The position numbers were made by a program, and so were the translations under genes. Below are positions 4,392 through 26,527 of a stretch of 26,527 nt of DNA, in pieces; position 1 is the first letter of the stretch; every line of letters begins with the position of its first letter. The notes below the pieces were generated by a model. It saw only the letters and a list, made by a program, of their open reading frames with translations, had not been told where the DNA came from and searched no databases. The DNA is from a virus (lineage: Duplodnaviria; Caudoviricetes), in IMG/VR virus record IMGVR_UViG_3300017766_003993, positions 1 through 26,527 of that record; one strand, written 5' to 3'.

Positions 4392-6531
4392 TGACCGGCT
4401 CCGCTTCCGGCGGCGGCATCATCTGAGGCACGAGCGGCGGAAGCGGGTACTGCGCGGCCACGGCCTCGGGCGGCTGGCCGGTCTGCGCCGCCATCATGTC
4501 GATCATCCGCTTGTATTTGAACGCGGCGTGCTCGGCGATGTGCGCCAGCATCGCGGGCTCGATGGCCTTCTGCCCCTCGGGCGGCAGAGCCCGGGCGAAA
4601 TTCAGGTGCGCGCTGATGTGGGCGTCGTGCTCCTGATCCTCGAACGCCTTTACCGGCTTCGAGGTGAGCAGGTTCATGTTCTCGGAAACAGGGTCCATCG
4701 GCTCCGGTTCTTCCTCATCTTCTTCTTCCATGAAAAAGAGTTCGGGATTCGGAACCCTCATCGCCCTCATAAGATTGAGGTCGGCGAGCTTTCTTGCTTT
4801 CTTACCGTAGACTTCGGGATCGGCTCTGACAATCTGCTGTGCAGACTGAGCCATTGCGATACGCTGAGTGTTGCTTGTGATCGTCGGATCACTTACCGGC
4901 ATCACGTCGATGCGCGCGTCGAGATCGGCCTGAAGATCAGCGCCGCCTTCCACGGGATAGGGATACTGTTCATTAGTGATGATGAACAGTTCTTGCAAAA
5001 TCTTCAGTTCTGTGGCGAAAGCACGGTGAATGCGCTTGTGGATCGCCGAGAAAACCTTGCTGCCCTGCTCGATCAGCGCGAGGGTGGTGCCGACCGGGCC
5101 GGTGTTCGGGCCCTCGCCGACCATCGCCTCGGTCGTGCTGCTGAACCGCTGCGCCGACTCGATGAGCATTCTCATCGTCAGCATGAGGGTCTGGCTCGGC
5201 TCCTTGAACGGCGGGGTGTAGAACGCCTTTTGCAGTTCCTCCGGCGTCATTTCCACTTCCTTCCAGACGCCGTGCTCGATTTCGAGATCGACGCGCTTGC
5301 CGCCGCCCTGCTTGGCGACGAACCCGCCCTGAAGGTTGTTCAGCGCCGCCGCGTCGATGATCGAGCGCAGCATGCTGCCGGCGCTGGCCGCCAGATTGCC
5401 GAGGACGTGGTAGAGCCCGAGCCCGTAGAAGCCGAGTCCCTGAAGGTATTTGTAGCTGGCGAACCAGATGCGCTTCATCTTGCGCTGGTCGTCGATCTTC
5501 CAGTTTCGGTAGATCGACAAAACCTTGTTTGTTTGTTTTTCTATGGTGACGATGTACGGAAGCGCGATCTCGTCGGAGCCGAGGCTGTCGCCGTCGATCA
5601 TGATGTCGCAGTGCGCTTCGTACAGTTCCGGAACTTCGTCGGTCGACGACGATCCGGAGCGGCGGTCGGCTTCATCTTCCGCAGCTTTTTCTTCGTTCTT
5701 CTCGATGTGTCCGAAGTCAGAAGCGTTGAATTCGTACTTCTTGAAGTGACCGCTTGCCATTGACCGCTTGAGGTCGTTCAGCGGCATGTTGTAGCGGTGG
5801 ATGATGTATTCGGCGTCGGCGAGCGACGATGCCTCGTAGGGAACGAGCAGGTTGCCGGCGGTGACGAACCGGGCCTTGGCCTTGCCGGTGAGCGGGCACC
5901 TGAACAGCTTGCGGAAAACGTGGCCTTCGAGCGCGACGCGGAACATCATCTTGTCGCTGTCGTCGTAGTAGCCCTCGTCGACTTCGGTCAGGTAGTAGTT
6001 GAAGAACCCGGCGACGCGCTCGCCGCGCTCGATGACATCCATCGTCGCGTTCGGGATCGTCTTGGCCTTCACGGGGCCGGCGCTCGGGAAGAATTCCTCG
6101 ATGGCCCGACTCTGGAACTGCACGGCGGACTCGGCCACGAGCGGATGGGTGACGGTGGACGCGCCATCGAACGGCCGGTCGTCGGCGTCGAGCGTGGCGA
6201 TGCCGAGCGTTTCCATGCCCTTTTCGAGGCACTTGTACCAGTCGGCCCGGTCCTCGATGGCGGCGTCCGCCCACTCGATGATCTGGTTGGCGATCCGGTC
6301 AAGCTCGCGCTGGTCCAGCGTTTCGGCGAGGTTGGCGGTGAACTCCGCGTCGCTGGCCGGAGCCTCGTCGTCGTCCTCGCTCTGGCCCTCGTCGCCTTCC
6401 AGTTCGAGGATGATCCCCTCCTGAGCAAGCTCGGCGGCGAGCCCCGCCGGGCGGCTTTCTTCGAGGACGACCTCGATCTCAGTAGGCAGTGCTGCGGTTG
6501 CGACTTCGCTTTCTTCGGGCAGCCCGTTCAT
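4384..6531 (-). CDS. Portal protein
   Basis: 715 aa. FTANLAE, PFDGASTVTHPLVAESAVQFQSRAIEEFFPSAGPVK, GLGFYGLGL and PVGTTLALIEQGSKVFSAIHKRIH motifs; directly after the terminase. Confidence 0.9.
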   Translation of the reverse strand: MNGLPEESEVATAALPTEIEVVLEESRPAGLAAELAQEGIILELEGDEGQSEDDDEAPASDAEFTANLAETLDQRELDRIANQIIEWADAAIEDRADWYKCLEKGMETLGIATLDADDRPFDGASTVTHPLVAESAVQFQSRAIEEFFPSAGPVKAKTIPNATMDVIERGERVAGFFNYYLTEVDEGYYDDSDKMMFRVALEGHVFRKLFRCPLTGKAKARFVTAGNLLVPYEASSLADAEYIIHRYNMPLNDLKRSMASGHFKKYEFNASDFGHIEKNEEKAAEDEADRRSGSSSTDEVPELYEAHCDIMIDGDSLGSDEIALPYIVTIEKQTNKVLSIYRNWKIDDQRKMKRIWFASYKYLQGLGFYGLGLYHVLGNLAASAGSMLRSIIDAAALNNLQGGFVAKQGGGKRVDLEIEHGVWKEVEMTPEELQKAFYTPPFKEPSQTLMLTMRMLIESAQRFSSTTEAMVGEGPNTGPVGTTLALIEQGSKVFSAIHKRIHRAFATELKILQELFIITNEQYPYPVEGGADLQADLDARIDVMPVSDPTITSNTQRIAMAQSAQQIVRADPEVYGKKARKLADLNLMRAMRVPNPELFFMEEEDEEEPEPMDPVSENMNLLTSKPVKAFEDQEHDAHISAHLNFARALPPEGQKAIEPAMLAHIAEHAAFKYKRMIDMMAAQTGQPPEAVAAQYPLPPLVPQMMPPPEAEPVNV

Positions 6532-8563
6532 CTTCTTCCTCGTCGTCGTGCCACTGTGTTGCGATGTTGCCCCGCACCCTCAGGTGGGCCAGCGCCAGAC
6601 CGACACACCCGTATAGCGCCTGATCGTCCCCATGAGGGAACCGCGCTAGTCTAGCGCGCAATTTGTTCCCCGCTGGTGAGTTTCTGACCCATCCTACTCC
6701 CTGCCGCAGAACGGACGATCCGACTGCGACAACATCCTCGACCTTCTCGAAAGCCGCCTTCCTCACCAAGAGATTGCGCACTCCACGCAAATCCTTCAGA
6801 AGAATCGAGGCTCTTGCTGGAATGTAGAAATAATCAGGCTCGTACAGCTTCCAAAGGCTTTCGGCACTTTCGAGGAAGTTGTAGACGCCTTCTCCGGTTA
6901 TGCACCGAAGAATCATCATGTGAGCGATGTCTTTTGTTTCGTTGATCGACTTCTTTGTGTCGATGTCCGGAACGAACACTCCACATGCAGCGATGGCCCA
7001 CTGTTCATCTTCGTGCCATGCGTACAGCGTGATGTAATTCATGTCTGGCAGAGACTCGGCCTTCGGCTTCAGCTTGACCGGCTTGAAGCGCCAGACTCTC
7101 CACAAGTCGGCATCCATGAGTCCGTTTTCAACGGGCTCGCTGAATGTAATGGCAAGAGCGTCCGCGATGTTCGGGCTATTGTGCCCGCGCTCTTTCGCGT
7201 CCTCCTTGCTCTCGATCTGTAGCTGACCGTTAGGTTTGTATTTGTATTTGAATACAGAAAGCTCGCTTCGGAGTAGCTGGTCGTCAGGAATAGAGGCATC
7301 CCCGAGCCACTCCCTCATTCCGTCGTAGCACTCGGCGCGCTTGTTGGCGTACCGCTTTTCCTCGATGGCCGTCCGCCGGAAGTCGACCCCGCGCACGCCC
7401 GGGAACCGCTGTTCGAGAATGCCCTTCAGGTGGTAGCCGACGCCGATCACGTCGATGAACGTCGCGTCCGGCTTCAGCTTCTCGATGATCTTGCCGACCA
7501 TGCCGGCGGCGTGGGACGGCTCGCGCTCGTTGATGAGCCAGCGCCCGAGGAACTTCTTGCCCTTGCGCGCGATCACCGCCGTGGGGTCAGTGCCGCCACC
7601 GCCCGGGTCGACGCCGACCACGAGCGGGCCGTCGGGCTCGCGCTCGCGCTGGACGGCCGCATCCACCACGTCGGGAGTGATGAAGGCTCCCTCGGCGTCG
7701 CTGAACACGTCGGCGACGGACATCGGGTACTCGCGGCGGAACAGGCGCTCGCCGTCGGCACCGTAGCTGGCGATCTTCTTCCGCCGCCAAGCAAGGTTCC
7801 GCTCGGTTAGTCGCGGATACGTCGACAGCATTTTCTTTTCTTCTTCCGTCAGAACGATTTGCTCGTTGCTGGCGTATTGAGGTTCGAGCCACCATTCGAG
7901 GAACACAAGCTCGAAGTCAGATGTCCCGGCTATAGCTGCCATGCACTGCGAATGGAACCAGTCGCCCGGGCCGTTGCCGGTCGACTCAATCCAAATTTCG
8001 GTGCCGTCCACGTCGGCGACACCCGTCATCAAGCCTCGGGCGATTTCGGTCGGGTTGTCGTAGTAGGCGGCTTCCGACAGGTGGAGGTACTGCGGCGTGA
8101 ATCCTCGACCGATGTTCTTGGAGCCGGCGGTTCCTACGGCGTAGCCTGAGTCGAGCGAGTCGAACGAAAGCTCTTTCGCGCTGTTAGTCGAAGCCTTCGG
8201 AACCAAATCTCTCGGAGCGTTTGTGTAGAAACGCTCCGCCATTTCAAAGATTTCGTCGGTCGTACCCTGATCGTGGGCCGCGACGAATGCCTTGACGCCT
8301 TTGATTGTTGTGATCTGATTGAAGAATCTGCCCTGAACATACGTCGATGTTCCGGTTTTTCTTCCTTTCGCAACGATGATGCGGACTCGTCCTTTCGTGC
8401 GAAGCTGTCTTTCGGCTACTTCGTGAAGTTTCTTCTGCTGCTCGCTGAGAACAAACGGCACGAGGCCGCCCTGAGGCGGCTTGAGTTTCAGTACGCTTTC
8501 GGCGTAGAAACTGAAGTCCGTTGCGAGGCGTTGGAGAACCTCTAATTTCTCTTGCGTCAGCAT
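6479..8563 (-). CDS. Terminase large subunit with an extra C-terminal degenerate nuclease-like domain
   Basis: 694 aa from ATG 8563. Walker A KGRKTGTST, Walker B LHLSEAA, coupling motif ESTGNG, nuclease motifs VVGVDPGGGGTD and SPNIADALAITF, then about 210 extra residues. Confidence 0.9.
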   Translation of the reverse strand: MLTQEKLEVLQRLATDFSFYAESVLKLKPPQGGLVPFVLSEQQKKLHEVAERQLRTKGRVRIIVAKGRKTGTSTYVQGRFFNQITTIKGVKAFVAAHDQGTTDEIFEMAERFYTNAPRDLVPKASTNSAKELSFDSLDSGYAVGTAGSKNIGRGFTPQYLHLSEAAYYDNPTEIARGLMTGVADVDGTEIWIESTGNGPGDWFHSQCMAAIAGTSDFELVFLEWWLEPQYASNEQIVLTEEEKKMLSTYPRLTERNLAWRRKKIASYGADGERLFRREYPMSVADVFSDAEGAFITPDVVDAAVQREREPDGPLVVGVDPGGGGTDPTAVIARKGKKFLGRWLINEREPSHAAGMVGKIIEKLKPDATFIDVIGVGYHLKGILEQRFPGVRGVDFRRTAIEEKRYANKRAECYDGMREWLGDASIPDDQLLRSELSVFKYKYKPNGQLQIESKEDAKERGHNSPNIADALAITFSEPVENGLMDADLWRVWRFKPVKLKPKAESLPDMNYITLYAWHEDEQWAIAACGVFVPDIDTKKSINETKDIAHMMILRCITGEGVYNFLESAESLWKLYEPDYFYIPARASILLKDLRGVRNLLVRKAAFEKVEDVVAVGSSVLRQGVGWVRNSPAGNKLRARLARFPHGDDQALYGCVGLALAHLRVRGNIATQWHDDEEEDERAARRKRSRNRSTAY

Positions 8564-16836: not shown

Positions 16837-16865
16837 AAAAAGCCCGGAGCGATCCGGGCTTTTTT
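16837..16865. terminator. Bidirectional Rho-independent terminator
   Basis: A5-GCCCGGA-GCGA-TCCGGGC-T6 between convergent units. Confidence 0.9.
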
Positions 16866-16867
16866 GT

Positions 16868-16943
16868 TGGTGCCGATGGCAGGGCTCGAACCCGCGACCT
16901 GTCGTTTACAAAACGACTGCTCTACCGACTGAGCTACAAGGGC
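16868..16943 (-). tRNA. tRNA-Thr(UGU), two acceptor-stem mismatches
   Basis: GCCCTTGTAGCTCAGTCGGTAGAGCA-GTCGT-TTTGTAA-ACGAC...GGTTCGAG...CATCGGC-A-CCA. Confidence 0.9.
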
Positions 16944-16945
16944 AA

Positions 16946-17022
16946 TGGCGCATCGTGTTGGACTCGAACCAACGGCCCTCGGCTTAGAAGGCCGATGCTC
17001 TATCCATCTGAGCTAACGACGC
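16946..17022 (-). tRNA. tRNA-Arg(UCU)
   Basis: Cloverleaf; anticodon arm TCGGC-CTTCTAA-GCCGA; encoded CCA. Confidence 0.95.
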
Positions 17023-17026
17023 AGCT

Positions 17027-17101
17027 TGGAGCGACGCCCGGGACTCGAACCCGGACCCCTCGCTTGGAAGGCGAGGATTCTCACCATTGAACTAGCATCG
17101 C
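17027..17101 (-). tRNA. tRNA-Gly(UCC)
   Basis: Cloverleaf; CTCGC-CTTCCAA-GCGAG; U73 and CCA. Confidence 0.95.
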
Positions 17102-17105
17102 AAAC

Positions 17106-17181
17106 TGGTAGCGGTGGATGGAATTGAACCATCTATTTCCACCTTATGAGGGTGGCGGCCTACCGGTGGCCCACAACCGCA
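17106..17181 (-). tRNA. tRNA with CAU anticodon (Met; Ile2 not excluded), irregular acceptor stem
   Basis: CCACC-CTCATAA-GGTGG arm, T-loop TTCAATT, CCA. The acceptor stem needs a bulge and a terminal mismatch. Confidence 0.8.
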
Positions 17182-17191
17182 ATAAACTGAA

Positions 17192-17357
17192 AAGAGCGGC
17201 CGGTACTGATTTCCGGCATGAATTTATACTATAAGGAACTTGGCGACCTTCCCCATCCGCTGACGAGTTACTCCCGATCTCACGGACTATATCCGTGCGT
17301 ATTACTCTCATCGCCCCTGCCGCGCAGGGCCGCGTATCAGCCTACGCATTCGCTCTT
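17192..17357 (-). ncRNA. c4 antisense-like RNA with a 114-nt central insert
   Basis: AAGAGCG-AAT-GCGTA-GGCTGA-TACGC...GCCGG-AAATCAGTA-CCGGC-CGCTCTT matches my recollection of the phage c4 RNA scaffold. Confidence 0.7.
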
Positions 17358-17362
17358 ACGGC

Positions 17363-17463
17363 TGGTGACTGCTGCGATGCGTCCATCGCGGAGTCTCCGG
17401 AGTCGAACCGGACGTGCGCTCTGCCGTTTAGGCTTGTCGCTCGCCACCTACTCACAATCACCA
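17363..17463 (-). ncRNA. Structured RNA containing a tRNA T-arm
   Basis: 9-bp closing stem TGGTGATTG/CAGTCACCA; internal TCCGG-TTCGACT-CCGGA; no D or anticodon arm. Confidence 0.55.
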
Positions 17464-17471
17464 TGCGTAAA

Positions 17472-17613
17472 AGCATCCCGTATCGCCGGGATAACGCGCC
17501 TGAATCAGGCTTGCAGGAGTTGGACAAACCCCATCAGGTGCCGACGTTCCTCGACCTTCGGCTGCGGGTCCATCTTCCGCCCCCAATCTGGACGGCCCCG
17601 ATGGCGGGGTGCT
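17472..17613. ncRNA. Candidate multi-branched structured RNA
   Basis: Ends AGCATCCCG/CGGGGTGCT are complementary; several internal stems. Confidence 0.35.
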
Positions 17614-17616
17614 GTG

Positions 17617-17729
17617 TGGCTGAAAGCGGCGAGACTCGAACTCGCGTCATGGTCAGGGTCGTTCAGGGCATTTCCTCCCTGCTCGAATATTCCCTGATTT
17701 CCGGCTCTGCCGCCTGAGCTACGCTTTCA
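17617..17729 (-). ncRNA. tRNA-like RNA with an 8-bp acceptor stem and a 52-nt arm replacing the anticodon arm
   Basis: TGAAAGCG-TA-GCTC-AGGCGGCA-GAGC-C-[52 nt]-ATGAC-GCGAG-TTCGAGT-CTCGC-CGCTTTCA-G-CCA. Confidence 0.8.
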
Positions 17730-17732
17730 AGT

Positions 17733-17796
17733 GATGGCGTTTGAAAGATTGGTGCGGGTGGTCCACCCTCCCCACAAGCCAATATCAAACGCCATC
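17733..17796. ncRNA. Long hairpin
   Basis: Perfect 12-bp stem GATGGCGTTTGA/TCAAACGCCATC plus inner ATTGG/CCAAT. Confidence 0.5.
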
Positions 17797-17885
17797 CTTG
17801 AAAGCTCTCCGTGTTGCCGGAGAAACGCAGCTTCATCCTGTCCTATCGTCGGACTCGATGCCATTCGCGCACCGTGATTCAGCGA

Positions 17886-17950
17886 TCAGCCGGCCCTTGT
17901 GTTGCGCTTACAGCGGCATTCCGGATGCTGCTGTCACAAGGGCCGGCTGA
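17886..17950. ncRNA. Long bulged hairpin
   Basis: Perfect 16-bp stem TCAGCCGGCCCTTGTG/CACAAGGGCCGGCTGA, 8-nt bulge, 11-bp inner stem. Confidence 0.55.
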
Positions 17951-17995
17951 ACTTCTAGGGGCGTAAGCGTGTGTCCGTTTCCCTAATATGTCGCC

Positions 17996-18024
17996 AGCTT
18001 ACTGGCCTCGATTGCCGTTGTCAA
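17996..18024 (-). promoter_or_regulatory. Sigma70-type promoter for the tRNA/ncRNA unit
   Basis: TTGACA-N17-TAAGCT on the minus strand. Confidence 0.75.
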
Positions 18025-26357: not shown

Positions 26358-26527
26358 AAGGGGAGATAGCTGCTCGGCATGGGAGGGGGAGCGGGGCTCG
26401 CCTTCAACCCACCCCTTGACATCAAGAGCCAAGGCGGAGCGGGGTCGGTGGACAAACCCACCCCTTGACATCGACGGATGAGGGGGTGCGGGAGAGGCGG
26501 ACAGACCCACCCCTTGACGCCAAGAAA
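26358..26527. repeat. Degenerate 49-bp tandem repeat, runs off the right edge
   Basis: Core ACCCACCCCTTGAC at 26407, 26456 and 26505; the intervening G-rich segments resemble each other. Confidence 0.8.

Follow-up and report, generated by a model that had tools for sequence, protein, structure and literature searches.

Evidence for a conserved tRNA-shaped RNA family in a phage operon of four tRNAs

What are the RNAs that phages encode beside their transfer RNAs (tRNAs)? Ever since RNAs C and D of phage T4, the role of such non-tRNA products of phage tRNA operons has been a question, and it is raised again by IMG/VR record IMGVR_UViG_3300017766_003993 (Duplodnaviria; Caudoviricetes), whose positions 1 to 26,527 form the stretch analysed here (26,527 nucleotides (nt); the window). 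On its minus strand, at 16837-18024, a probable promoter is followed by six end-paired domains (d1 to d6, counted from the promoter), four CCA-encoding tRNAs and a terminator hairpin. An initial annotation had interpreted this region as a precursor processed by tRNA-maturation enzymes into tRNA mimics, decoys or regulatory RNAs. The region is real, comprising a string of predicted folded RNAs upstream of four tRNAs, and its last domain, d6, almost certainly represents a family of conserved structured RNA. New here is a family with sharp covariation and near-invariant arms, with a copy in the classic genetic model P1, where the record has antisense open reading frames (ORFs) only. A tRNA shape with an alternative elbow, if true, would constitute a new structural motif.

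Predicted structure, covariation and spread of the d6 family

17192 to 17357, minus strand: d6, the last domain, a member of the conserved tRNA-shaped family by homologues and covariation; 71.9 bits with model R1 (window in the training set)

The d6 domain is composed of a 7-base-pair (bp) acceptor-like stem, an arm in the D-arm position (17347-17332, loop GGCUGA), a variable middle of 114 nt, and an arm in the T-arm position (17217-17199) whose loop, AAAUCAGUA, is predicted to form a 5-bp loop-loop pairing with the D-position loop. The family consensus comprises the acceptor-like stem, AAU, a 5-bp arm (loop GGCUGA), the variable middle, a second 5-bp arm (loop ARAUCAGYR), and the acceptor strand directly behind it. 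The acceptor-like stem is free in sequence; the two arms are near-invariant, with complementary loops (GCUGA with UCAGY). The middle spans 28-122 nt and is weakly structured (mean z-score of folding, z, -0.74), with 26 of 70 middles sharing a 10-mer with another.

Whole-region blastn against phages and plasmids gave weak matches only, and the homologues of d6 surfaced with single-domain queries. Queried alone, d6 matched 51 phage records in two short stretches, in many cases between genes, and both arms were present in all eight matches inspected. A 15-mer scan of IMG/VR yielded 89 loci, about 23 of them members and the others chance, and the two-arm pattern retrieved 44 GTDB contigs, mostly proteobacterial.

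The covariation alignment took in 41 of 53 parser rows, after removal of duplicates and near-duplicates, of two rows judged to be chance, and of the very long stems. Substitutions on both sides are seen in 14 of the 24 pairs, and pairing holds in 95.8% of cells; none of 500 shuffles reached any of the measures, and slid controls of the same alignment paired at 28-47%. In the unfiltered 44 GTDB matches, acceptor positions 2-7 pair at 95%, compared with 52.5 ± 2.9% (maximum 63%) over 2,000 partner shuffles, and at the loop position opposite G, which the pattern left free, all 44 carry C or U. G-U pairs are tolerated, pointing to RNA. The d6 domain itself gives no Rfam tRNA match at E ≤ 10 and departs from the T-loop consensus, and the element in 20 member loci gives no Rfam tRNA match at E ≤ 0.05 and matches no Rfam 15 family. 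The outcome that would have refuted the initial idea, no covariation or a described family for every domain, did not occur: d6 covaries strongly and matches no Rfam family.

With model R1, P1 (69814-69921), ZC08 and 24-32N each yield a single member, and T4, MW202545.1 and PAK_P3 yield none. Additionally, members are present in at least 4 of 150 sampled genomes of the phylum of genome G001, besides G001 itself, a lower bound with 22 candidates scored per genome. With one member as query, blastn gave matches in 1,147 of 5,426 complete E. coli genomes (E ≤ 1), in two pieces in 11 of the 20 rows inspected. Proteobacterial phages and prophages carry members within tRNA operons, in lysis leaders and in early operons, a spread that suggests a proteobacterium as the host of the window phage. 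Among 71 distinct members, a same-strand tRNA lies within 700 nt in 16 (10/27 phage, 6/44 GTDB) and within 40 nt in 4; an opposite-strand tRNA within 700 nt occurs in none. Of the ORFs flanking GTDB members, 63 of 79, from 40 of the 44 loci, were scanned, revealing a PHROG neighbour at 29 of the 40, including lysis genes, Q, CI, recombinases, terminase and integrase. Because the neighbours differ (lysis genes, Q, CI, recombinases, terminase, tRNAs), control of one gene is argued against.

The family member in P1 is one of a string of end-paired cassettes and comes downstream of trnA and trnT; the only features that the record annotates there are plp and upl, both antisense ORFs. Abutting cassette strings are found in the tRNA operons of the cultured phages P1, STGO-35-1, 24-32N, ZC08 and CASP1, so the operon type seen in the window recurs, as does the string-of-cassettes architecture originally proposed for it. 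In the window and in STGO-35-1, only short RNA elements or tRNAs and a terminator follow the family member.

Further elements were observed in these and related operons. P1 carries a second cassette of the d6 architecture (L439:1765-1888), with a 9-bp end stem, AAU, and two arms with other loops (GCUAAG, AAGCA), possibly a paralogous subfamily undetected by R1. More end-paired cassettes lie at L439:1197-1270, 1422-1503 and 1702-1761, L387:1313-1421 and L389:1328-1397; those at L439:1702, L387 and L389 have the same outer stem and different interiors, and two P1 cassettes have an internal 18-mer in common. In STGO-35-1 (L387:1078-1218) and 24-32N (L389:1116-1238), an element resembling transfer-messenger RNA (tmRNA) heads the RNA string, with a sub-threshold tmRNA_permuted match and a frame that resembles a tag and closes with two alanines and two stops. 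MW202545.1, a relative by its capsid, has a tRNA cluster and no d6-family member; six unannotated tRNAs are followed there by a Betaproteobacteria-1 RNA (recorded at L003:5415-5532; RF02932, 100 bits).

The operon around d6

17996 to 18024, minus strand: probable sigma-70 promoter, TTGACA-17 nt-TAAGCT, overlapping the stop codon of the upstream Phage_gp49_66 ORF
17886 to 17950, minus strand: d1, hairpin with a perfect 16-bp outer stem; z -7.8, pair probability about 1 in the precursor, no homologue found
17800 to 17885, minus strand: spacer with small hairpins and no end pairing; z -1.3
17733 to 17796, minus strand: d2, hairpin with a perfect 12-bp outer stem; z -5.6, no homologue found
17617 to 17729, minus strand: d3, tRNA body in which a long irregular hairpin takes the place of the anticodon arm; 39.3 bits with the Rfam tRNA model, gathering threshold 29
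17472 to 17613, minus strand: d4, multi-hairpin domain, closing stem with 8 of 9 pairs; z -1.3, weakest support, closing stem unpopulated in the precursor ensemble
17363 to 17463, minus strand: d5, 9-bp closing stem ending ACCA, internal canonical T-arm (loop starting at 17407); no homologue found
17107 to 17181, minus strand: tRNA-Met(CAT), irregular, with a bulged acceptor stem, U1:U72 and encoded CCA
17027 to 17101, minus strand: tRNA-Gly(TCC)
16946 to 17022, minus strand: tRNA-Arg(TCT)
16868 to 16943, minus strand: tRNA-Thr(TGT)
16837 to 16865, no strand assigned: probable bidirectional intrinsic terminator between convergent units, GC hairpin flanked by an A run and a T run (A6-hairpin-T5), inverted repeat I2; z -4.5

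The four tRNAs (Met-CAT, Gly-TCC, Arg-TCT, Thr-TGT) are present at 16868-17180 on the minus strand, as the initial annotation claimed, and, in line with its view that the region holds no credible coding sequence, the two longest overlapping ORFs run antisense without a Pfam match. The terminator hairpin has a folding z of -4.5; the promoter, described as consensus, has a perfect -35 element (TTGACA) and a weak -10 element (TAAGCT, 3/6). The consensus scanner listed neither signal. Codon compensation by the four tRNAs has no clear support, because the codons they read are rare in the phage genes, at 7-11% of their families. A pattern search for homologues of the tRNA-Met found none.

End-to-end stems close all six domains exactly where they had been predicted, with fold z-scores ranging from -7.8 (d1) and -5.6 (d2) to -1.3 (d4). 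The tRNA-like spacing of 3-10 nt also attributed to most of them fails for d1 and d2, which lie 89 nt apart. A coordinate-blind tiling search linked five of the six into a single chain that runs up to tRNA-Met. The anchored tiling score was matched in 9 of 200 shuffles; because unanchored chains of at least five occurred in 73 of 200 and a stricter first version of the test gave no separation from chance (30/60), tiling by itself is weak evidence. Features beyond chance are the two T-arms in d3 and d5 (0/200 shuffles), the two perfect stems of at least 12 bp in d1 and d2 (two in 0/100 shuffles), and a 12-mer repeated in d3 and d6 (1/200 shuffles). The fold of the whole region has z -6.8, yet values of -5 to -6 also arose in 2 of the 14 coding strands used as controls. 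The Rfam search of the region returned tRNA matches only, d3 among them.

The d3 domain retains an 8-bp acceptor stem, a G discriminator, a D-arm, a T-arm and an encoded CCA (17619-17617), and 54 nt remain unaligned to the Rfam tRNA model, without a 5-bp anticodon stem and 7-nt loop, so that no anticodon is assignable. It was missed by ARAGORN and by the fast scan. Pattern searches found no homologue, the hit L001 being a chance match inside a coding region. Likely, d3 is a second non-decoding tRNA mimic. Bodies with an enlarged anticodon region occur in about 1,000 IMG/VR stretches; of 120 such loci examined, most are perfect in both the acceptor and the T stem, some are giant-virus intron tRNAs of the eukaryote type, and none matches the d3 insert.

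Several loci were recorded in their own right. In L005, L007, L030, L034, L037, L051, L070, L083, L102, L121 and others, the anticodon arm of recurring phage tRNA bodies has given way to an A-rich run, a hairpin and ACAGCAA. Several occur per cluster with differing acceptors, Rfam gives tRNA matches only, and they may be related to the 'introns' of Lak phages. The anticodon arm of the tRNA bodies in L065 and L069 resembles an H-type pseudoknot, and L216, L221, L224, L225, L237, L241, L252 and L256 hold a tRNA-like element with acceptor, D- and T-arms and no anticodon arm. The 12-mer copies of the window lie at 17694-17705 and 17206-17217, where the start of the d3 replaced anticodon arm equals the start of the d6 T-position arm; a recombination scar or a common binding site may be involved.

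The domains d1, d2, d4 and d5 are likely further cassettes of the precursor, a reading yet unproven. No homologue of any of the four appeared in the searches made, outside which the closest phages lay, so that this absence does not speak for neutrality, nor did dedicated pattern searches yield one for d5. Two candidates were rejected. A 19/20 match of d4 to L206 is taken as chance, being antisense to the portal gene of L206 at a site absent from the window's portal. A resemblance of d5 to P1 c4 proved wrong, as P1 c4 aligns at z ≤ 2.4 and the region has no C4 model match.

The window belongs to a virus record estimated as 43% complete, and the single run containing its sequence is a freshwater metagenome; the probable source run gives an identical assembly of the operon region, not independent of the window. 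The encoded proteins include capsid, portal, terminase, helicase, primase, Erf, YqaJ, SSB and MazG. The capsid is 49-50% identical to that of HTVC023P and a few other cultured phages, and the close phage relatives share 57-85% identity in terminase and 73-75% in helicase. Scans for relatives of the window returned one 5.6-kb fragment (L126, equal to L206) without the operon and the window's own contig, and none in genomes. The terminase large subunit (6479-8563, minus strand) belongs to a small clade (about 695 amino acids) with an extra C-terminal region of about 200 residues, absent from relatives of about 500 and without a match in a Pfam search. At 26400-26510 on the plus strand, TTGACA comes after a C-run in both copies of a repeat spaced 49 nt apart; these are possible tandem promoters or operators.

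Proposed mode of action and alternatives

The best explanation of the whole, with a probability of about 0.5, is a polycistronic transcript cut into tRNAs and folded RNAs, with the d6 family as a trans-acting non-decoding ligand or decoy. Host tRNA-maturation nucleases would cut one phage transcript into the four tRNAs and several folded RNAs. In d6, the acceptor-like stem and the T-position arm would stack as they do in tRNA, here with 7+5 bp, and the two loops would pair (GCUGA with UCAGY), replacing the D/T elbow. RNase P and exonucleases would then release d6, and its invariant arms would offer a binding surface for a host tRNA-handling protein. A 12-bp acceptor/T stack with short spacers serves RNase P and tRNA 3' nucleases as a substrate, and since d6 would present one, its release as a discrete RNA is probable. 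The invariant arms are proposed as the binding surface because the acceptor sequence, the 3' CCA and the anticodon-position middle all vary; with conservation placed in the two elbow arms, charging or decoding is unlikely, and recognition of shape and elbow sequence is favoured. Action in trans as a ligand or decoy is proposed tentatively, and a specifically anti-defence role appears unlikely. Phage tRNAs are reported to counter anticodon nucleases such as PARIS (PMC11455837, in part). It is a speculative and doubtful extension that whole operons of such tRNA-shaped modules have been overlooked in proteobacterial phages, P1 included. Their elbows would be re-engineered, loop-loop pairing replacing the D/T loops, their anticodon-position modules would be swappable, and together they would serve as an RNA-only toolkit for counter-defence or host takeover, titrating host proteins that bind tRNA, such as anticodon nucleases or tRNA-modifying toxins.

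Several observations weigh against this explanation. No homologue was found for five of the six domains, and no binding partner or defence link for d6. Within the precursor as predicted, closing-stem probability is about 0 for d3 and d4 and about 0.4 for d6, with the true tRNAs scoring equally poorly. The parser for the covariation alignment required an acceptor stem of at least 6 bp. CCA lies near the 3' end in only 25 of 71 members, compared with a 9% background and possibly inflated by C-rich acceptor strands, and d6 in the window ends UUCA. Because four of the five loop-loop pairs are invariant, largely fixed by the search patterns, and both A-U cases at the fifth pair stem from a scan that fixed U, the elbow is consistent and predicted, not proven. 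Finally, 55 of the 71 members lack a same-strand tRNA within 700 nt, so the d6 family is not tied to tRNA operons, and many members lie in operon leaders, as a cis element would. The initial idea of a processed precursor yielding tRNA mimics or decoys is accordingly strengthened by the covariation of d6, its lack of an Rfam match and its recurrence in other phages, and weakened by this independence from tRNA operons.

The alternative that survives best, though on balance improbable, restricts function to d6 and the tRNAs, with d1-d5 as lineage-specific filler, decaying tRNA genes or, for d3, a Lak-like intron-bearing tRNA. It would account for the lack of homologues for d1, d2, the d3 middle, d4 and d5 and for a tiling only marginal against shuffles, and tRNA 'introns' are reported in Lak phages (PMC6784885, in part). 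However, perfect 16- and 12-bp stems are kept in d1 and d2, and in d3 the acceptor, the D- and T-arms and the CCA are all intact. Inspection of d3 showed no excision that would leave a 5-bp stem and a 7-nt loop, and under the strand rule for a bulge-helix-bulge site its proximal bulge lies on the wrong strand.

A cis function is also unlikely, with the d6 family serving as a tRNA-shaped processing or stability signal, or as a nascent-RNA antiterminator, for the downstream part of long operons. The location of many members, whether heading an early operon or in a lysis leader that follows Q, suits this, as do the ribosome-binding site and ATG found 20-35 nt downstream of several and the 55 of 71 members that lack a nearby tRNA. 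In the window, however, d6 precedes only four tRNAs, which have their own processing signals, and a terminator; two cassettes of the d6 shape stand in one P1 string; and the near-invariant arms exceed what an RNase P site needs.

Less probable still is a division of labour in which the conserved arms act as a tRNA-like scaffold that lends stability, and the variable middle holds a cargo that differs from phage to phage, either a small RNA that base-pairs or an aptamer. The length range, weak structure and mostly unshared sequence of the middle suit this, as does the recurrence of the same middle in a few pairs of different genomes, but the d6 middle has no exact match of at least 11 nt to the rest of the contig (43% of the genome). 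One large ornate RNA of the GOLLD/ROOL type is highly improbable: the 800 nt, the freshwater origin and the position next to tRNAs resemble that class (PMC12286853, in part), but RF02032 and RF03087 give no match and d6 travels alone with other neighbours.

Relation to known systems

The d6 family is apparently unnamed and was not found described. A full-text search with six family motif strings found no paper, subscription papers and figures lying outside it, and a text search on the P1 tRNA region found none describing the element, the P1 genome paper lying outside it. The motifs are absent from four supplements of Fremin et al. 2023 (PMC10690425), which reports 8,495 DNA-virus csRNA candidates and whose alignments may hold the family.

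Among the RNAs proposed for checking against Rfam, GOLLD, C4 and ROOL gave no match, YrlA gave sub-threshold matches only, and d3 scored as a tRNA. The conserved 3' region of GOLLD (RF02032) has no match in the window, nor has the ROOL covariance model (RF03087), for which no control genome gave a signal in a dedicated run. C4 antisense RNA (RF01695) has no model match in the region, and no icd/ant ORF is annotated. For ribozymes of the theta type or resembling that of hepatitis delta virus (HDV), Rfam gives no match and our own descriptor, lacking a positive control, gave 0 matches. Neither ARAGORN nor Rfam calls a tmRNA in the window. YrlA, which some phages carry, is a non-decoding RNA whose elbow resembles that of a tRNA; the best window score for it (RF02553) is 30.3 against 69 bits, across true tRNAs, and no Ro60 gene is among the annotated window ORFs. 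GOLLD and ROOL are described as large freshwater phage RNAs of unknown function near tRNA islands (PMC12286853, in part), whereas the window has modular small cassettes, not one large RNA.

Lak phages carry tRNA 'introns', and oversized or irregular tRNA bodies are reported in phages and mobile DNA (PMC6784885, PMC5389517, both in part). The d3 domain shares this architectural class, common in IMG/VR, with Lak 'intron' tRNAs and irregular-tRNA polycistrons (allo-tRNA, E-loop tRNA), but its insert matches no examined locus (n = 120) and yields no anticodon; d6, for its part, lacks the tRNA D-/T-loop consensus. In Pseudomonas phage PAK_P3, in which R1 finds no match, sRNA2 is reported as an abundant late RNA of about 100 nt between two phage tRNAs, having 11 nt in common with a T-loop (PMC4933390, in part).

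The closest precedent is that of T4 RNAC and RNAD (species 1 and 2 RNAs), RNAs described in the 1970s (PMC4933390, in part), made from the tRNA region and given there as of unknown function (PMC3014915, PMC9697503, both in part). Like the window domains, they are small, differ from tRNAs, and directly adjoin the tRNAs of a phage tRNA operon. Homology is lacking, with R1 finding nothing in T4 and pairwise z ≤ 2.6. T4 rnaC folds with an end stem and a canonical T-loop arm, whereas d6 has its own complementary loop pair, and the d6 family, unlike RNAC and RNAD as compared, occurs also outside tRNA operons. As judged from sequence, the operon type of the window would work like the T4 situation without being homologous to it.
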